Shown piece after piece: positions 11,501-18,051 of a stretch of DNA of 32,000 nt. Source of the DNA: Methylophaga frappieri (lineage in GTDB: Bacteria > Pseudomonadota > Gammaproteobacteria > Nitrosococcales > Methylophagaceae); assembly GCF_000260965.1 (NCBI RefSeq), contig NC_017856.1, forward strand, positions 1,110,001 to 1,142,000, given 5' to 3'. The first letter of the stretch is position 1. Each line of letters starts with the position of its first letter. The notes below the pieces were generated by a model. It was not told the DNA's origin, ran no database searches, and saw nothing but the letters and a program-made list of their open reading frames with translations. Both the position numbers and the translations under genes were made by a program.

Positions 11501-12033
11501 GCTTTGGTCTGTATAACGAGATTCTGGAACGGGCGGTGAAAGCGCTGAAATCAGGTCAAACGCCTTCTATCGATACAATAGATCGTCATATGGTCGAAAT
11601 TGATCTGCATGTGCCGGCCTTGATCCCGTCAGATTATCTGCCGGATGTGCATAATCGACTGGTGCTCTACAAACGCATTGCTGCTGCACCAGATAAAGAA
11701 GCGCTACACGAATTGCAGGTTGAAATGGTCGATCGGTTTGGCTTATTGCCAGACCAGGTAAAAACATTATTTGCCGTGCACGAAATGCGTTTGAAAGCCA
11801 AAGCCGTGGGTATTCGCAAAATTGATGTTTACGATCAGGGTGGTCGATTAATTTTCGATGAAAAACCCCATATCGAACCGATTCGAATCATTGAGCTGAT
11901 TCAAAAACAACCGAGTCGTTTTAAACTCGATGGACAGGACAAGTTAAAATTTAGTGGCGATATGCCAGACGCTGATAGCCGCATTGTGGCTCTTGATAAT
12001 CTGCTAGATAGTCTATTGGCCCCCGCTGCCTGA
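8560..12033 (+). CDS. mfd: Transcription-repair coupling factor
   Basis: About 1157 aa. It has a UvrB-homology N-terminal region, a CarD-like RNAP-interaction domain (VVHEDHGVGRYLGL), superfamily-2 helicase motifs (GDVGFGKTEVAMRAA; DEEHRFGV; TLTATPIPRTL; QLYQIRGRVGRS) and a TRG region. The start is uncertain. The track uses the GTG at 8527. The ATG at 8560 lacks an SD. The TTG at 8575 is preceded by GAGGGGG with a 4 nt spacer. Confidence 0.95.
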   Translation: MRGGNLSASLLQPELPLNANDKRLAGQLYGSAAGLLLANAALQHDGPLLVITDDMTRAQRLETEIRFYLGAENLPILHFPDWETLPYDTFSPHQDIISERLQTLHQLPDFHRGILLVPVATIMQRIAPAGFLEGHRLQLAVGDTLDIDSWRLRLEKSGYRHVSQVVEHGEFAVRGAIIDLYPMGSRWPYRIDLFDDEIDTLRTFDPETQRSVDTIDRINLLPAREFPVNEDSIKLFRQQYRTQFDGDPQKSLIYREVSEGNLPGGIEFYLPLFFEQTACLTDYLPENTLLIHSNDTVQAAEAYWQEIDIRYQQHRVDPNRPLLPPTAVFVPVDDLFARFKRWPRLQCQNFELEAAAAHHNYASVSPPQLTLNSRQEKPCELLENFLASFDGRVLIAAESAGRRETLLDLLRKNQLQAKPIDNWQAFLNDAANLCITVAPLEQGLYLPSRNLAVIAETQLFGQQVMQRRRRSRKKRDSDAIIRNLAELSLGDAVVHEDHGVGRYLGLQKLDVGDVEAEYVTLEYAKGDKLYVPVASLELISRYSGAAPELAPLHQLGTTQWEKARRRAAEKARDVAAELLDIYAKRAANKKDPMAAPDNHYDAFSAAFSFETTPDQQDAIDAVVADLQSDTPMDRLICGDVGFGKTEVAMRAAFLTVQSGKQVLVLVPTTLLAQQHYENFKDRFADWPVKVEVLSRFRSKKQLDNVKSAISDGTADIIIGTHKLLQQDIQPKRLGLFVLDEEHRFGVTQKEQLKKYRTHIDVLTLTATPIPRTLNMSISGIRDLSIIATAPARRLAIKTFVLQWQADKVREGMLREIKRGGQVYYLYNKVEDIDRVARELESLMPEARIGIAHGQMRERELEQVMLDFYHQRFNVLVCTTIIETGIDVPSANTIFIDRADKLGLAQLYQIRGRVGRSHHRAYAYLITPPQTAMTSDAIKRLEAIESIEDLGAGFTLATHDMEIRGAGELLGDEQSGQMQEIGFGLYNEILERAVKALKSGQTPSIDTIDRHMVEIDLHVPALIPSDYLPDVHNRLVLYKRIAAAPDKEALHELQVEMVDRFGLLPDQVKTLFAVHEMRLKAKAVGIRKIDVYDQGGRLIFDEKPHIEPIRIIELIQKQPSRFKLDGQDKLKFSGDMPDADSRIVALDNLLDSLLAPAA

Positions 12034-12800
12034 TGCAGGATCGTAATTTTGATGATTTAGCGGCACGTTTTCGTGATCGTATCTACGATACAGAAAAAGG
12101 CCGCTGGCGGCTGACATTGCTAAAAGAGGATTTGGCCGAACTGGCAAAAAATGACCCGTTACAAATTTGGGATGCCGGTTGTGGCCTGGCGCAAATCAGT
12201 TTGTGGTTAGCAAAACAAGGCCATCACCTGACGTTATGTGACATCTCAGCAACACTATTGGACGAAGCTAAATCACGTTTTCATCAAGCAAACTGTGACG
12301 GCCAATTTCATCAACAACCGGCTCAATCTTTAGCGAACGCCTTACCCGAGTTTGATATGGTAATTAACCACGCTGTGCTCGAATGGTTGGCCGATCCCGT
12401 TGCTGGCTTGGAAGTAATTGCTAAAAAAGTGCGACCAGAGGGCTATTTATCCTTGATGTTCTACAATCGAAACGCCATGGTGTATCAAAATGTGCTGCGC
12501 GGTGGTTGGCGTTTACAATCGATCATTGATGATCGTTATATCGGCAAAGGTAATCGGCTGAGTCCACCGCATCCGCTATACCCGCATGAGGTACAAGCAA
12601 AATTGCAGGCGCAGGGTTTTGAAATCATTAAACATACCGGCATTCGGGTATTTAGTGATTATTTGTCAGCCGAATCCAAAGCCAACAGCCAGCCGGCTGA
12701 ATTACAACAACTGGAAGCACAATATTGCCGAATGCCGGCTTATCGTGATTTGGGTCGATATGTGCATTTTCTGGCAAAAAAAACCGCCAGTCCTGCTTAG
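12033..12800 (+). CDS. cmoM: tRNA uridine 5-oxyacetic acid(34) methyltransferase CmoM (SmtA-type SAM-dependent methyltransferase)
   Basis: The N-terminus MQDRNFDDLAARF matches E. coli SmtA/CmoM MQDRNFDDIAEKF. Other matches are the SAM motif I (IWDAGCGLAQ), HAVLEWLADP vs HAVLEWVADP, LSLMFYN, and the C-terminal YCRMPAYRDLGRYVHFLAKK vs YCRQEPYITLGRYIHVTARK. The start overlaps the mfd stop (TGATG). Confidence 0.85.
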   Translation: MQDRNFDDLAARFRDRIYDTEKGRWRLTLLKEDLAELAKNDPLQIWDAGCGLAQISLWLAKQGHHLTLCDISATLLDEAKSRFHQANCDGQFHQQPAQSLANALPEFDMVINHAVLEWLADPVAGLEVIAKKVRPEGYLSLMFYNRNAMVYQNVLRGGWRLQSIIDDRYIGKGNRLSPPHPLYPHEVQAKLQAQGFEIIKHTGIRVFSDYLSAESKANSQPAELQQLEAQYCRMPAYRDLGRYVHFLAKKTASPA

Positions 12801-12877
12801 GTAACAGGTACAATCGATAAATTTATAAACTGAAATCAGTTAGATAATCAGACAACTTTTGGTGGTGTTGAAAACAC

Positions 12878-13699
12878 ATGAATAAACTGAAACTCTCCTT
12901 AATGATGGTGACAGCCAGCATCATGACTGGCTGTTTACAACAACCGCAAAACTCGCTGACACCAGCACAGCTACAAACGGCGCTTCTCGAAGCGGAAAAC
13001 CGGATGGAAGAAAAGTGGCGTAATCACTGCACCACACTCATTGATAACCAGAAAACGAATTACGCCGGTCTGAATGACATAAAAAGCGGCCAAAAAGGAT
13101 TAAATCGAAAATTAGATGAAATCAGCCAGCAACTCAACGAGCAGCCAGAGCCGGTAGTCATCACGTCCCCCTCCGAACCGGCCAAAAGTTGTCCTACTGT
13201 CGCACCAGCGACCGTCAACGACAAACTGATTTTGGGAAGAACGGAATGGATTTGGCTGGAACCAGTGAACCGGGTTTTTCGGGCTCGAGTTGACTCTGGC
13301 GCGACCACATCATCTCTTTCCGCACACCATATCGTGGAGTTTGAACGTGATGGTCAGCGCTGGGTGCGTTTCAACATGGTTCCGGATGATGATGTTGATG
13401 ATAGCTACGAAGTTGAAGCACCGCTGGTTCGGGTTGCCAAAATCCGCCAGGCTTCCAGTGATGAACTGGATCGCCGACTGGTTGTCGAGTTAACGATGAA
13501 AGTGGGTGATTTTACCGATACCGCTGAGTTCACTTTGACGGATCGCACAGCAATGACCTACCCCATTTTATTAGGACGTGAATTTCTTCGGGATATCGCA
13601 TTGATTGATGTGGCAAAAAGTTATCATCAACCAAAACCGGAGCCGATTCAGGGGCGACCGGAAAGCGCACCGGATGCTGACGTAGAAACCGATAATTAA
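12878..13699 (+). CDS. Lipoprotein with a C-terminal retropepsin-like aspartic protease domain (the family historically named 'putative ATP-dependent zinc protease', RimB-like)
   Basis: Lipobox MNKLKLSLMMVTASIMTGC (Cys19). An N-terminal extension of about 100 aa follows. The C-terminal domain has LGRTEWIWLEPV...FRARVDSGATTSSLSA (the D-S-G-A active-site motif at nt 13292-13303) and YPILLGREFL. Confidence 0.8.
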   Translation: MNKLKLSLMMVTASIMTGCLQQPQNSLTPAQLQTALLEAENRMEEKWRNHCTTLIDNQKTNYAGLNDIKSGQKGLNRKLDEISQQLNEQPEPVVITSPSEPAKSCPTVAPATVNDKLILGRTEWIWLEPVNRVFRARVDSGATTSSLSAHHIVEFERDGQRWVRFNMVPDDDVDDSYEVEAPLVRVAKIRQASSDELDRRLVVELTMKVGDFTDTAEFTLTDRTAMTYPILLGREFLRDIALIDVAKSYHQPKPEPIQGRPESAPDADVETDN

Positions 13700-13718
13700 G
13701 CGTAGTTAAGGATCCTTT

Positions 13719-15233
13719 ATGGCTTCACGCACCCCCTTTTATATTCTGGTTGGATTGCTGTTGATAGCTGGGACGGCGCTGACTTTGCACCGTCATTTGG
13801 CATTAGACATTCCTTGGTTACCAGGCGAAACCCGCCAAACTTGGTCAATTGAAGCCAAAGTAGATTTTGTTGCTGAAGGTGAAGAGGTGATTGCCGCGCT
13901 AGCAATTCCGGGCACCCAGCCCGGTTTTACACAGTTAAACCAGCAAACTGCTAGCCCTGGCTATGGCCTGGCCTATGAAGAACGAGCCACCGGACGCCGC
14001 GTTGAATGGTCTATTCGTGAAGCAACGGGTAACCAGTCACTTTATTACAAAGTGGATATGCTGACCGATCCTTATGCTGTGCCTTCAACGCCAATGGTGC
14101 CACCGGAAAATAAGACGGTCGTTGAAAAAGAACCCTATGCTACCGCTGCGCAAGAACTGCTGACCGGTGCAACGGCCCGTTCGGCCTCGCCTTACACATT
14201 GGCGCGCGAGTTAATTGTCGAGTTCAATAATCAAAAACAAACCGCAGAACTGTTGGCTCAGGTCAAACCTAGAACAGCCTGGCTGGTTCAATTACTACAA
14301 CAGTCCGGTATTGCCGCCCGACAAGTGCATGCGCTTGAATTGGAAGATGGCCGCAGACGGCAACAGTTAATTGATTATCTTCAGGTTTTTGAAGACGATA
14401 CCCATTATGCCTTGTTTAATCCGCTTACTGGGAAACAGGGCCAACCGGAAAACCTGCTGTTATGGCAATATCATTCCGGCCCCGTGCTCGAAGTGATTGG
14501 CGGTAGTAATTCAAGCGTGACCTTTTCGATGATCGAACAGGAACAGCCATTTGGCGTGGCGCTCAATCAAAAGTTTGCTGACCATCAATTATTAAACTTT
14601 TCCCTTTACGATCTGCCCATCGAGGAACAGGCATTATTTAAAAATATCCTGCTGATACCCGTAGGTGTTCTGATGGTGGTATTGATGCGTATCCTGATTG
14701 GTATCAAGACATCGGGGACATTTATGCCTGTCTTGATCGCACTTGCCTTTATTCAAACCAGCTTAACCACAGGCTTAGTTGGTTTTCTGCTGATTGTTGG
14801 CGCGGGTTTAATTATTCGCTCATATTTGTCATACCTTAACCTGCTCTTGGTTGCCCGAATATCGGCGGTCATTATTATGGTGATCGGCATGATCGCCATG
14901 TTCTCGATCATTGCTTATAAAGTCGGCTTGACGGAAGGCATGAAAATCACCTTTTTCCCGATGATTATTCTGGCATGGACCATTGAACGGATGTCGATTT
15001 TATGGGAAGAGGAAGGTGCCAAAGCGGTCATGGTTCAAGGCGGCGGCTCACTATTGGTGGCAATTGTTGCCTATCTGGTTATGAACAATGATTTGGTCAG
15101 ACATTTGACCTTTAACTTCTTAGGTATTCAGTTAATTCTGATGGCCTTTACCTTGATGGCAGGCAGCTATACCGGCTATCGACTCTTGGAGTTGAAACGG
15201 TTCAAACCATTGACCGAGATTGATAAACCATGA
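13719..15233 (+). CDS. Inactive transglutaminase-like ectodomain fused to a polytopic (about 7 TM) membrane domain
   Basis: 504 aa. It starts with an N-terminal TM anchor (FYILVGLLLIAGTALTL). An ectodomain of about 290 aa follows, with RTAWLVQLLQQSGIAARQV at the position of the transglutaminase GxC...GIPAR motif. The C-terminal ~200 aa is a block of hydrophobic helices. The whole protein contains no cysteine. The RBS is AAGGA, 6 nt upstream of the ATG. Confidence 0.78.
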   Translation: MASRTPFYILVGLLLIAGTALTLHRHLALDIPWLPGETRQTWSIEAKVDFVAEGEEVIAALAIPGTQPGFTQLNQQTASPGYGLAYEERATGRRVEWSIREATGNQSLYYKVDMLTDPYAVPSTPMVPPENKTVVEKEPYATAAQELLTGATARSASPYTLARELIVEFNNQKQTAELLAQVKPRTAWLVQLLQQSGIAARQVHALELEDGRRRQQLIDYLQVFEDDTHYALFNPLTGKQGQPENLLLWQYHSGPVLEVIGGSNSSVTFSMIEQEQPFGVALNQKFADHQLLNFSLYDLPIEEQALFKNILLIPVGVLMVVLMRILIGIKTSGTFMPVLIALAFIQTSLTTGLVGFLLIVGAGLIIRSYLSYLNLLLVARISAVIIMVIGMIAMFSIIAYKVGLTEGMKITFFPMIILAWTIERMSILWEEEGAKAVMVQGGGSLLVAIVAYLVMNNDLVRHLTFNFLGIQLILMAFTLMAGSYTGYRLLELKRFKPLTEIDKP

Positions 15234-16225
15234 CCGGTCCACTCACTTGGCTTCGTAACCTCAAAAAAGACTACGTTCACCCCAACAAGTTACATAAAAT
15301 TGGGGTCATGGGGATGAATCAGCGCAATATTTCTTATATTAGCCGCTATAATCCGCGTCATTTGTATCCACTGGTGGATGACAAATTAAAAACCAAGGAA
15401 ATTGCGCTGGAAGCCGGCGTGAAAGTGCCGGATTTGATTGGCACCATTGATCACCAGCATGCGGTTAAGGAATTAGGCAATTTGCTGCCCCACAATCGCG
15501 GATTTTGCATCAAGCCCGCTAACGGCTCTGGTGGGAAAGGGATTCTGGTGGTGACCCGCCAAGATGAAAATGGCTATCGGAAATCCAATGGTCAATATGC
15601 AACGATTGGCGATTTAGAACGTCATGTATCGAATATTCTGGCAGGTCTGTTTTCGTTGGGTGGCAAGGCAGATGTCGCGATCATTGAAGACTTGATTCAC
15701 TTTGATGATTGTTTCAGCGGCTTCAGTTATGAAGGTGTACCGGATACCCGCGTTGTCATTTTTAAAGGCTTTCCGGTCATGGCAATGATGCGGCTTTCCA
15801 CGCGCGATTCCAATGGCAAAGCCAATCTGCATCAAGGGGCCGTGGGTGTCGGGCTGGATATTGCTGATGGACACGCCTTACGCGCAGTGCAATTTGATAA
15901 GCCTGTCCTACAACATCCGGATACCGGCATTAATTTGATGAGCCTGCAAATTCCGCATTGGGAAACGCTGCTTAATCTTGCTGTTTCCTGTTATGAAATG
16001 TCCGGCCTGGGTTATCTTGGTACCGACATTGTGTTGGATCGCTACCAGGGCCCGATGCTGCTGGAACTGAATGCGCGCCCAGGCCTGACCATTCAGATTG
16101 CCAATGGCACAGGCCTGTTGCCACGTTTGCAGCACATTGAAAGTCTGGGGAAAAAACAGCGCATGAAGCCGGAAGACCGGGTTGCCTATGCACGTGAACA
16201 TTTCGGGGTAAATATTAACGTTTAG
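15230..16225 (+). CDS. Alpha-L-glutamate ligase-related ATP-grasp protein (RimK-related)
   Basis: 331 aa. GMNQRNISYISRYNPRHLYPLVDDKLKTKEIALEAGVKVPDLIG, the glycine-rich loop CIKPANGSGGKGILVV, and LGTDIVLDRYQGPMLLELNARPG (metal-binding E-x-N). There is a 4 nt ATGA overlap with the upstream gene. Confidence 0.85.
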   Translation: MTGPLTWLRNLKKDYVHPNKLHKIGVMGMNQRNISYISRYNPRHLYPLVDDKLKTKEIALEAGVKVPDLIGTIDHQHAVKELGNLLPHNRGFCIKPANGSGGKGILVVTRQDENGYRKSNGQYATIGDLERHVSNILAGLFSLGGKADVAIIEDLIHFDDCFSGFSYEGVPDTRVVIFKGFPVMAMMRLSTRDSNGKANLHQGAVGVGLDIADGHALRAVQFDKPVLQHPDTGINLMSLQIPHWETLLNLAVSCYEMSGLGYLGTDIVLDRYQGPMLLELNARPGLTIQIANGTGLLPRLQHIESLGKKQRMKPEDRVAYAREHFGVNINV

Positions 16226-16234
16226 CGGGAGCCA

Positions 16235-16957
16235 ATGATGACGGAGAAGCCATACTTTTTGCCGGCCGTAAGCTTGGGGATTTGTCTTTTGATTGGTCTG
16301 GCATTGCTGGGCAGTTTACTGGGCACCGCGTTGCTGGATATGAAGCAACTCGAACGCAGTGTTACGGTAAAAGGCTTGTCAGAACACGAATATGAAGCAG
16401 ATATTGTCATTTGGCCAATTCAGTTTACCGAAGCCGATAATGATCTCAACCGTCTTTATCAGCGCATGGAATCAGGTACGCGTAAAGTTCGCGATTTTTT
16501 AACTGACAAAGCGATTGCAGACAGCGAAATCACCATTAATGCCCCGGCGATAACCGACAAGTCAGCCCAACAATATGGTGGCGCAAGACCCGATTTTCGT
16601 TATACCGCTTCGCAAACCGTGACTGTCTACTCTGAAAACATTGCCGCCGTGCGTCAGGCAATGTCCGACATGGCCGAGCTGGGCAAACAAGGTCTGGTTC
16701 TGACCGGCAATAATTACATGGCTCAAAGTGAGTATCTGTTTACCCGGCTGAATGAGATCAAACCACAAATGATCGAAGAAGCAACTCGAAATGCGCGTGA
16801 AGTCGCAGAGAAGTTTGCTGAAGATTCCAATAGTAATCTGGGCAAAATTAAACAAGCTTCGCAAGGCCAATTCAGCATTTATGCGCGTGACAACAATAAT
16901 CCGCACATCAAAAAAGTGCGCGTTGTTTCGACTATTGAGTATTACTTATCAGATTAA
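16235..16957 (+). CDS. Membrane-anchored SIMPL/DUF541-family protein
   Basis: N-terminal TM segment (YFLPAVSLGICLLIGLALLGSLLGTALL) followed by RSVTVKGLSEHEYEADIV... and ...AREVAEKFAEDSNSNLGKIKQASQGQFSI, which resemble the SIMPL pattern. It starts 9 nt after the ligase stop, with GGGAG upstream. The ATG at 16238 is an alternative start. Confidence 0.6.
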   Translation: MMTEKPYFLPAVSLGICLLIGLALLGSLLGTALLDMKQLERSVTVKGLSEHEYEADIVIWPIQFTEADNDLNRLYQRMESGTRKVRDFLTDKAIADSEITINAPAITDKSAQQYGGARPDFRYTASQTVTVYSENIAAVRQAMSDMAELGKQGLVLTGNNYMAQSEYLFTRLNEIKPQMIEEATRNAREVAEKFAEDSNSNLGKIKQASQGQFSIYARDNNNPHIKKVRVVSTIEYYLSD

Positions 16958-16968
16958 TCGCAATCACA

Positions 16969-16994
16969 GCGCCGCCAATTAGACACGGCGGCGC
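16969..16994. terminator. GC-rich hairpin between convergent genes (8 bp perfect stem GCGCCGCC/GGCGGCGC, 10 nt loop)
   Basis: Read directly from the sequence. It lies 12 nt after the SIMPL gene stop. The T-tract is weak. Confidence 0.45.
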
Positions 16995-17034
16995 CAGTAT
17001 TGCCTGATCCTGTCAGCCGATTTTCCCGTCGGAT

Positions 17035-18051
17035 TTATGTTGATTTTATCTCGACCAGACGACGCTCACGTATGGATTGTAATGCTGCCGACATCGCCGC
17101 ACAGTTCCCCTTGGCATCGGCAAAGCTGAGAACCGTTGGTTTGTGGTTCAAAGCACAGTCCGAGAAATGCTGAATTTCCCGAACAAACTGATCTGCCGCA
17201 GCCAGCCGGACTGTCTCCTGCTGACCAGCTTCTGTCCACCAGGAAATAATCGGCTCCTCTTCAGCCGGTTGCCAGACCTGATGACAGCGAATTCCGCCCA
17301 ACGTGCCGATGATTTCATAAACACTGCGACGGGCATGTTCAAAACTGATCTCAAACTGCGCATATCGGCCGGCGCCAAAATCAAACTGCCCAGCCAGACT
17401 CAAGTCCGCACTGTGATCATTTAGATTTGCCATGGCGAATGCGGCTGTTGGTTCACCATCAAACCACATCCGTGCCGTGTGAACCGCATACGGACCAATA
17501 TCCCACATTGCTCCGCCACCATTATCTATACTGCGATTAACGCGATACAGGCGTGCTGGCTTCATGGGAAAAGCAAAATGGGTATTGACCACCCGAACCT
17601 CACCAATGGCACCGGACTCAATAATTTCACGCACTGCTTCATGCTGCGGATGAAACCGGTACATGAACCCTTCCATTACCGTGACACCCGCTTGTTCTGC
17701 CGCCGATTCAATGGCGGTAATATCGGCAACGGTCAGTGCCATCGGTTTCTCAATCAAGACATGTTTACCTGCTGCAATCGCTTTCAGCGCCCATTCAGCA
17801 TGCTCTTCGTTGGCCATCGGTAAATAAATGGCATCAATATCCGGTCTGTCCAGTAAAACTTGTGGATCATCAAGTGCTTCAACCGGCTGACCCGCCGCAT
17901 ATTTCTCGAGCGCCTCTGCTGCCGCGCCAGAACGCCGACTTGCAACGGCTACCAGTACCGCATTATCAGCCTCCAGTATCGCCGGAATCAGTTTTTCTAC
18001 AACACGGGCAGCGCCAAGAACGCCCCATTTCAACGCAGGTGAATTTGCCAT
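17035..18051 (-). CDS. Gfo/Idh/MocA family NAD(P)-dependent oxidoreductase
   Basis: N-terminal Rossmann signature KWGVLGAARVVEKLIPAI, the EKP motif (VLIEKPMAL), and a length of 338 aa. Confidence 0.85.
   Translation of the reverse strand: MANSPALKWGVLGAARVVEKLIPAILEADNAVLVAVASRRSGAAAEALEKYAAGQPVEALDDPQVLLDRPDIDAIYLPMANEEHAEWALKAIAAGKHVLIEKPMALTVADITAIESAAEQAGVTVMEGFMYRFHPQHEAVREIIESGAIGEVRVVNTHFAFPMKPARLYRVNRSIDNGGGAMWDIGPYAVHTARMWFDGEPTAAFAMANLNDHSADLSLAGQFDFGAGRYAQFEISFEHARRSVYEIIGTLGGIRCHQVWQPAEEEPIISWWTEAGQQETVRLAAADQFVREIQHFSDCALNHKPTVLSFADAKGNCAAMSAALQSIRERRLVEIKST

Follow-up and report, generated by a model that had tools for sequence, protein, structure and literature searches.

A probable rloABC orthologue in Methylophaga frappieri, with a SIMPL-domain gene as its neighbour

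A stretch of 32,000 nucleotides from Methylophaga frappieri (NCBI RefSeq assembly GCF_000260965.1, contig NC_017856.1, positions 1,110,001 to 1,142,000 of the forward strand; this whole stretch is the window, and positions are counted from its first letter) carries four closely packed genes on the + strand at 12878-16957. These are predicted to encode (i) a retropepsin-like protease, (ii) a membrane protein in which an inactive transglutaminase-like domain is fused to a seven-transmembrane (7TM) domain, (iii) an ATP-grasp protein, and (iv) a SIMPL-domain protein. The first three genes (12878-16225) are, with high confidence, orthologous to rloABC of Pseudomonas aeruginosa, a system that was named and partly characterised in 2025. 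The finding is real, but it is already largely known; as the discovery has been made and named, the window adds an orthologue and not a new system.

The gene cluster and the conservation of its first three members

The four open reading frames (ORFs) lie exactly where the first-pass annotation of this DNA, made from the letters alone, had placed them, in coordinates, in strand and in their spacing of 19 nt, -4 nt (an ATGA overlap) and 9 nt (Table 1). A profile search run on their products matched every family that had been foreseen, i.e., PF05618 for the first protein, PF14400 and PF14402 for the second, TIGR02291 for the third and PF04402 for the fourth. Proteins 1, 2 and 4 are 100% identical to M. 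frappieri entries in the database, whose labels in the public annotation are either hypothetical or misleading ("Gonadoliberin III", "uncharacterized protein conserved in archaea", "ATP-dependent zinc protease").

To place the cluster among other genomes, 15 diverse RloB homologues were aligned, the alignment was used to fetch 80 reference-genome loci, and these were searched by tblastn with the window proteins. The loci span Methylophaga, Aeromonas, Zobellella, Oceanimonas, Oceanisphaera, Halomonadaceae, Photobacterium, Enterovibrio, Cellvibrionaceae, Tolumonas, Azoarcus and others. RloA, RloB and RloC were adjacent, in identical order and on the same strand, in 80/80 loci, with median gaps of 6 nt between rloA and rloB and 2.5 nt between rloB and rloC. 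Given such short gaps across 80 orthologous loci, the tight packing in the window is not due to chance, and the conserved neighbourhood that had been anticipated for the protease, the pseudo-transglutaminase-7TM protein and the ATP-grasp protein is borne out. The SIMPL gene, by comparison, stands 3' of rloC in 7/80 loci, all of them from Methylophaga, and is missing next to rloABC in the other 73; no conserved fourth gene was found 3' of the trio in those 73 loci, where the downstream neighbours form 32 unrelated clusters.

The NCBIfam models RloA, RloA2, RloA3 and RimB, together with "osmotic stress tolerance membrane protein RloB", match proteins 1 and 2. The Rlo models derive from Lormand et al. 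2025 (mBio, PMC12239564), who gave the name rloABC to a three-gene operon of P. aeruginosa, PA1768-PA1767-PA1766 (PA14_41690-41710-41730). The same three genes, as one operon, had earlier been a repeated target in a suppressor screen (PMC7314104).

Table 1. Features of the rloABC-SIMPL region, in window coordinates
Feature	Position	Strand	Basis
rloA ORF	12878-13699	+	273 aa, PF05618 match
rloB ORF	13719-15233	+	504 aa, PF14400 and PF14402 match
rloC ORF	15230-16225	+	331 aa, TIGR02291 / PF14397 match
SIMPL-domain gene ORF	16235-16957	+	240 aa, PF04402 match
RloA predicted signal peptide and lipobox IMTG-C19	12878-12934	+	sequence MNKLKLSLMMVTASIMTGC, pattern-based
RloA N-terminal extension: long helix (aa 29-87), then Pro-rich linker (aa 88-115)	12962-13138	+	AF2, pLDDT ~95
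RloA protease domain (aa 116-243), catalytic D139-S-G-A (nt 13292-13303)	13223-13606	+	AF2 beta-rich domain, alignment
RloB inactive transglutaminase-like periplasmic domain (~275 residues), preceded by an N-terminal transmembrane helix	about 13788-14618	+	PF14400, model
RloB 7TM domain (helices aa 301-494)	about 14619-15200	+	PF14402, AF2
Intergenic leader 5' of rloA (77 nt, AT-rich), presumed promoter region	12801-12877	+	sequence inspection
GC-rich hairpin between convergent SIMPL and oxidoreductase genes, possible transcript end	16969-16994	.	folding
GFO/IDH/MocA oxidoreductase gene, convergent with SIMPL gene	17035-18051	-	profile search

The predicted proteins and their genomic setting

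Judged from its sequence, the window RloA is predicted to be a long-form lipoprotein and a retropepsin-like aspartic protease. It matches PF05618 (E 2.4e-40) and, by sequence, the structures 9g58 (1.3e-21) and 9g59 (4.7e-21), while its AlphaFold2 (AF2) model, with a predicted local distance difference test score (pLDDT) of 88, matches 9g59 (RloA2), 9g58 (RloA) and 2pma (Lpg0085) with TM values of 0.81-0.87 and a Foldseek E of 5e-12; Ddi1 and then HIV-1 protease are the next-best matches. The N-terminus, MNKLKLSLMMVTASIMTG-C19, fits the pattern of a lipoprotein-type signal. Cys19 is kept in at least 90% of 44 homologues, the lipobox pattern occurs in most of the 80 loci, and the long lipobox-bearing form is the rule among these loci, and the extension is found in most orthologues outside Pseudomonas; the closest database homologues of the window RloA are of the long form only. 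The main text of Lormand et al. 2025 mentions neither lipoproteins nor the RloA extension (PMC12239564). A Pfam search of the extension returned nothing significant. As the heptad periodicity of its long helix is weak (z = 2.8 here, with a median of 1.16 over 44 orthologues and 14/44 above 2), a dimerising coiled coil is a possibility that stays at the level of a guess.

Seven positions are invariant in the 44-homologue RloA alignment, namely R137, D139, G141, A142, R185, R200 and R223. Of these, R137, D139, R185, R200 and R223 map to K46, D48, R92, R114 and R137 of the P. aeruginosa protein, in a mapping that is indirect, made via the 9g58 alignment and the spacing from the catalytic Asp. In P. 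aeruginosa RloA, K46, R92, R114 and R137 were modelled to coordinate polyglutamate (poly-Glu); alanine at the coordinating positions lowered activity, and with R114A and R137A complementation was lost as well (PMC12239564). That the arginines which bind poly-Glu are invariant in distant orthologues supports an acidic, poly-Glu-like ligand.

Two further observations concern RloA. Two cysteines of the N-terminal extension, C51 in the long helix and C105 in the linker (there within a "CP" motif), are also seen in Methylophaga and in many proteins of Halomonadaceae, as well as in a good number of database homologues; they may form an alternative disulfide within or between chains. Among the Cellvibrionaceae, five RloA proteins (loci L029, L041, L049, L055 and L077) keep the catalytic Asp in a diverged motif (DTGI, DDEA, DTAL, DTGM and DPGA), and L049 at least has lost the Arg equivalent to R223; encoded in intact rloABC loci, these may, to judge by their motifs, be weakened or inactive proteases.

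RloB, a predicted inner-membrane protein, matches PF14400 (E 1.8e-53) and PF14402 (E 7.5e-108), and its residues 8-498 run collinear with positions 9-505 of the 508 in the NCBIfam RloB model (1.1e-98), a match over the full length. The protein has not a single Cys in 504 aa and therefore cannot be a catalytic transglutaminase. The ectodomain of its AF2 model (pLDDT 74.8) resembles 3isr (E 1.7e-7), which is described as a putative cysteine protease of the transglutaminase-like kind; a PDB sequence search with RloB gave nothing convincing, the best E being about 0.5. In the alignment of 15 homologues, about 47% of positions are invariant in the 7TM domain versus about 21% in the N-terminal 300 residues, such that, by sequence comparison, the 7TM domain is the most conserved part of RloB, at about twice the level of the ectodomain. 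Two invariant motifs stand out. WTIERMSxLWEEEG (aa 420-433, nt 14976-15017) occupies a loop for which the order of helices in the model, taken with the positive-inside rule, predicts a cytoplasmic location, and DGRRRQ (aa 210-215, nt 14346-14363) lies in the periplasmic pseudo-transglutaminase domain, where its arginine triplet would suit an acidic ligand.

RloC is predicted to be a cytoplasmic ATP-grasp enzyme of the alpha-L-glutamate-ligase-like family. It scores 472 bits against TIGR02291, "alpha-L-glutamate ligase-like protein" (cut-off 314), its best Pfam match is PF14397, ATPgrasp_ST (8e-99), and no transmembrane segment is predicted. Matches to RimK, glutathione-synthetase and cyanophycin-synthetase models are weak (RimK family TIGR00768, 36 bits against a cut-off of 143.4), and a PDB sequence search found no relative of RloC at E up to 0.01.

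Upstream of the trio, a sigma-70 consensus scan gave no site in the 77-nt leader, site counts being not above those of shuffles; no conserved element was found in this leader among the seven Methylophaga loci, and the only Rfam matches in the whole window were two tRNAs, none of them in the leader. The gene directly 5' of rloA on the same strand (12033-12800) encodes a methyltransferase that resembles CmoM (231 bits, under the cut-off of 366), and its ATG shares one base with the stop codon of mfd. In 32/80 loci, in Aeromonas, Zobellella, Oceanimonas, Oceanisphaera, Tolumonas, Photobacterium and Enterovibrio, the place 5' of rloA is taken, again on its strand, by a gene that we judged from its sequence to be CmoB-like; it is treated here as synteny among related orders and not as a module member. 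Two different genes of the tRNA cmo5U pathway thus stand directly 5' of rloA, the CmoB-like one in those 32 loci and the CmoM-like one in Methylophaga, which could be inherited synteny plus coincidence.

At the 3' end, the hairpin between the convergent genes has a perfect 8-bp G/C stem, a 10-nt loop and no U-tract, which is why the scan for intrinsic terminators did not pick it up. It is the stablest 40-nt local fold in 12700-17120 (-18.9 kcal/mol), and folding of the 91 nt at 16950-17040 (z = -3.7 versus shuffles) confirmed the GC-rich stem that the first-pass annotation had reported. The accompanying claim that no hairpin precedes it was slightly overstated, as an imperfect local structure in the 3' part of rloC (16079-16118) comes close in stability, at -18.2 kcal/mol over 40 nt. 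Weak terminator-like sites inside genes numbered 11 by consensus scan, not clearly above the 7.2 +/- 3.0 of shuffles. The other window genes that we examined are housekeeping genes (uvrC, pgsA-like, tRNA-Gly, tRNA-Cys, mfd, peroxiredoxin, rpiA, fructosamine kinase and low-molecular-weight phosphatase). Elsewhere in the window, an ORF at 815-1663 on the - strand (282 aa, TTG start) matched no Pfam family at an E value of 1e-5 or better.

A working model and its rivals

What the trio does has been studied in P. aeruginosa, where the rlo module governs survival under hypo-osmotic conditions, tolerance of beta-lactams, the formation of biofilms and the shape of cells. There, RloA is one of three paralogous aspartic proteases of the retropepsin-like type, all of them secreted, and crystal structures have been solved for RloA (9g58) and RloA2 (9g59), so that the fold and the dimer are known; RloA cuts runs of at least 8 glutamates in vitro and also cleaves RpsF-8E (PMC12239564). 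Cells that lack all three proteases are misshapen and sensitive to beta-lactams, form poor biofilms and do not survive in medium of low osmolarity, and loss of rloB or rloC is epistatic, suppressing these defects (PMC12239564). This rescue of cells without the proteases by the loss of rloB or rloC shows that something which RloB and RloC generate does harm if RloA does not process it.

The first-pass annotation had known of no defined substrate, product or phenotype for such a module. Phenotypes and poly-Glu cleavage in vitro have in fact been published, and the claim stands for the other half, as Lormand et al. 2025 leaves the physiological substrate and the RloC product undefined (PMC12239564); our literature search found no later paper that defines the product of RloC or the natural substrate of RloA. 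Its suggestion of a membrane-coupled system for peptide ligation and processing, or for envelope modification, is consistent with the published working model (PMC12239564).

Taken as a whole, the best explanation of the locus, and one that we consider likely, is an rloABC orthologue that acts by a working model of synthesis, export and trimming, with the SIMPL gene as a lineage-specific neighbour. In this working model, RloC would use ATP in the cytoplasm to make poly-alpha-glutamate, as a chain rich in glutamate that is free or attached to an acceptor, and RloB would be needed for this product to act in or to reach the envelope, its Cys-free transglutaminase-like ectodomain serving as a binding module and not as an enzyme. 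RloA, as a lipid-anchored, dimeric periplasmic protease with a basic channel, would then cut poly-Glu stretches and so limit a product that is harmful on accumulation, especially at low osmolarity. The mechanism in this form is held tentatively, at somewhat less than an even chance. We take as established here (i) the orthology, (ii) the conservation of the trio, (iii) the conservation of the residues for catalysis and for poly-Glu binding, and (iv) the inactivity of the transglutaminase domain; we infer that RloC makes polyglutamate and that RloB exports or presents it.

Several points weigh against the favoured explanation. On the side of orthology, the window RloA falls well under the NCBIfam cut-offs (RloA3, 106 bits against 210; RloA2, 104.5 against 250; RloA1, 95.6 against 280), as does RloB (331 bits against 900). 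These RloA1/2/3 and RloB models are narrow, Pseudomonas-centred and of the "exception" or "equivalog" type, and under NCBI's narrow definitions the window proteins, by their profile scores, are relatives and not equivalogs; RloB and RloC were assigned from profile matches and gene order. The disulfide between a pair of cysteines that is described as conserved in periplasmic RloA (PMC12239564) is absent, the only cysteines of the window RloA being C19, C51 and C105, with none in the protease domain and Met at the position aligned to a 9g58 Cys. On the side of mechanism, the 7TM part of the RloB model has no significant solved relative or transporter by Foldseek, which gave only RND-pump alignments at a probability below 0.12. 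No enzymatic activity is reported in the literature for any RloC, and PF14397, its best Pfam family, bears the name "sugar-transfer associated ATP-grasp". Finally, no natural poly-Glu substrate of RloA has been found, and the authors call its physiological substrate unknown (PMC12239564).

A bolder form of the synthesis-export-trimming model, which strikes us as doubtful, would have RloC and RloB act as a new synthase-exporter pair that delivers ribosome-independent poly-alpha-glutamate, unbound or joined to an acceptor in the envelope, to the Gram-negative periplasm, with RloA as the length-controlling depolymerase. With equal doubt attached, RloA in most lineages would then be a lipoprotein positioned near the membrane on a long helical stalk. 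If true, this would mean a new class of periplasmic polyanion for osmotic and cell-wall homeostasis, and the 7TM_transglut domain would represent a novel type of translocator for peptides. The synthase-exporter idea is a question of the published Rlo system generally and is not particular to this window.

The main rival to a poly-Glu pathway supposes a different chemistry, in which RloC acts on some component of the envelope, such as a polysaccharide, a precursor of peptidoglycan or a sugar acid linked to lipid, by amidation or by ligation of an amino acid, RloB is a sensor or scaffold that regulates cell-wall enzymes, and RloA processes a protein with an acidic segment. We regard this as unlikely, but it draws on the name of RloC's best Pfam family and on the missing natural poly-Glu substrate, as well as on three observations from other bacteria. 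In the discussion of the Pseudomonas study, peptidoglycan is what the phenotypes of cell shape, beta-lactam sensitivity and lysis in hypo-osmotic conditions point to, and the Vibrio cholerae orthologues belong to the VxrAB cell-wall-stress regulon (PMC12239564); in Shewanella vesiculosa, disruption of hm2192, annotated as an inactive transglutaminase with a 7TM domain, leads to hypervesiculation, in a paper that draws no link to Rlo (PMC12096838). What tells against it is that RloC scores above the TIGR02291 cut-off and resembles, if weakly, RimK and the glutathione and cyanophycin synthetases, and that the arginines which coordinate poly-Glu are invariant, their mutation abolishing complementation in Pseudomonas (PMC12239564). 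Moreover, CprS, the sole acidic periplasmic candidate tried in Pseudomonas, was not cut by RloA (PMC12239564).

A further alternative takes the SIMPL protein as an integral fourth component of the ligase/pseudo-transglutaminase/protease system, as the first-pass annotation had done. The protein itself is a firm member of its family (PF04402, E 5.6e-18, 66.4 bits against a gathering score of 25.2), matches the PDB entries 10am (9e-60) and 7c50 (6.6e-59) over nearly its full length by sequence, and has a predicted N-terminal transmembrane anchor (aa 11-29). It is thus a predicted membrane-anchored periplasmic protein that would share a compartment with RloA and the RloB ectodomain. The 9-nt gap, the gene's own GGGAG Shine-Dalgarno site and the lack of a terminator-like site between rloC and the SIMPL gene make co-transcription with rloC in Methylophaga probable, so that the SIMPL gene probably sits on the rloABC transcript there, and the arrangement recurs in all seven other Methylophaga loci with rloC-SIMPL gaps of 17-54 nt. 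These seven loci, however, also share the upstream mfd and methyltransferase genes (7/7) and mostly the downstream oxidoreductase (6/7), by which the adjacency is explained as shared ancestry, i.e., as synteny at the level of the genus. In Desulfospira, Sedimenticola, Alkalimarinus and Thalassotalea, no rlo genes were found within 6 kb of SIMPL homologues of 66-72% identity, and the Pseudomonas operon has three genes (PMC12239564). From the presence of the SIMPL gene in so few of the 80 loci and its unrelated contexts elsewhere, it follows that the conserved unit is of three genes. The four-gene arrangement as a general module is therefore largely refuted and improbable, and the SIMPL gene is very likely a Methylophaga-specific neighbour instead of a conserved member.

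Other observations on the SIMPL gene stand apart from this question. The subfamily is very conserved, with homologues almost all of 239 aa, and in the public annotation the gene has its start 18 codons further on, which leaves 222 aa or 93% of the ORF; as the longer ORF also supplies the membrane anchor, the annotated start is probably wrong. Despite the identity of 66-72%, the contexts of the subfamily are variable, and one locus (L082) lies beside an integrase and a transposase fragment. A literature search on SIMPL function returned nothing useful.

A cytoplasmic system of the RimK/RimB type, for polyglutamylation and trimming of ribosomal protein S6 (RpsF), would account for the homology, i.e., the match of RloA to the RimB model (3.6e-26) and the weak RimK-family matches of RloC, and for the in vitro cleavage of RpsF-8E by RloA (PMC12239564). 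We exclude such a ribosomal function, and rate it as very improbable, because scores are below threshold (36 bits against 143 for the RimK family, 91.7 against 200 for RimB), because RloA carries a predicted signal peptide and lipobox, and because deletion of rimB in Pseudomonas showed no genetic interaction with rloA mutants (PMC12239564); the membrane protein RloB is, in addition, interposed in 80/80 loci. The least credible idea, a mobile or anti-phage defence cassette containing a protease and an ATP-grasp enzyme, has nothing more than the compact multi-enzyme layout in its favour and was dropped at negligible probability, since PADLOC gave no match for any of the four proteins, the GC content of 0.455-0.50 over 12-17 kb lies within the window range of 0.447-0.522 and so does not set this region apart, genes of the housekeeping kind flank it on both sides (uvrC, mfd, rpiA, peroxiredoxin), and the chromosomal position is stable within the genus Methylophaga.

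Ultimately, the window contributes clear evidence that the conserved unit comprises three genes and not four, and it indicates that the usual RloA outside Pseudomonas is a longer, lipobox-bearing form with a predicted helical stalk and no intradomain disulfide. The invariant poly-Glu-binding arginines strengthen the case for an acidic, poly-Glu-like ligand as the conserved substrate, and the greater constraint on the 7TM domain than on the pseudo-enzyme ectodomain directs experiments to the 7TM part of RloB.

Comparison with known systems

Among the periplasmic SIMPL/DUF541 proteins (PF04402; 7c50, 10am), which include Brucella BP26 and Escherichia coli YggE, the fourth window protein finds nearly full-length relatives at E of about 1e-59, but the family has no rloABC association outside Methylophaga. 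The Gram-positive poly-gamma-glutamate systems, PgsBCA/CapBCA with PgdS/CapD, are similar to the working model in concept, in that synthesis and export are membrane-associated and ribosome-independent and a depolymerase acts outside the cytoplasm; the parallel is also discussed by the authors of the Pseudomonas study (PMC12239564). PgsB is Mur-ligase-like and not an ATP-grasp protein, however, the linkage is gamma as opposed to alpha, and the enzyme families are unrelated to Rlo; no homology between the window proteins and the Pgs/Cap systems was detected.

RimK and RimB (RimABK) are nearer, as their proteins are homologous to those of the window and likewise pair an ATP-grasp glutamate ligase with a retropepsin-like trimmer of poly-alpha-glutamate. 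The Rim proteins are nonetheless all cytoplasmic, lack a membrane protein of the RloB type and have a defined substrate in RpsF, whereas the window RloA has a predicted export signal.

The closest counterpart is rloABC of P. aeruginosa. There, RloA has 179 aa, against 273 aa in the window, where the protease domain is preceded by a lipobox Cys, ~60 residues of helix and a ~25-residue linker; the window motif is DSGA in place of DTGA, and the intradomain disulfide is missing. The NCBIfam Rlo scores are far under cut-off, and a SIMPL gene is appended 3'. Alike in both are the gene order, the strand and the three protein families, along with the retropepsin fold of RloA, its D-T/S-G-A motif, its secretion signal and its poly-Glu-coordinating basic residues. 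Alike, too, are the architecture of RloB, in which a periplasmic domain of the inactive transglutaminase type lies between an N-terminal transmembrane helix and a 7TM domain, and a cytoplasmic ATP-grasp RloC.

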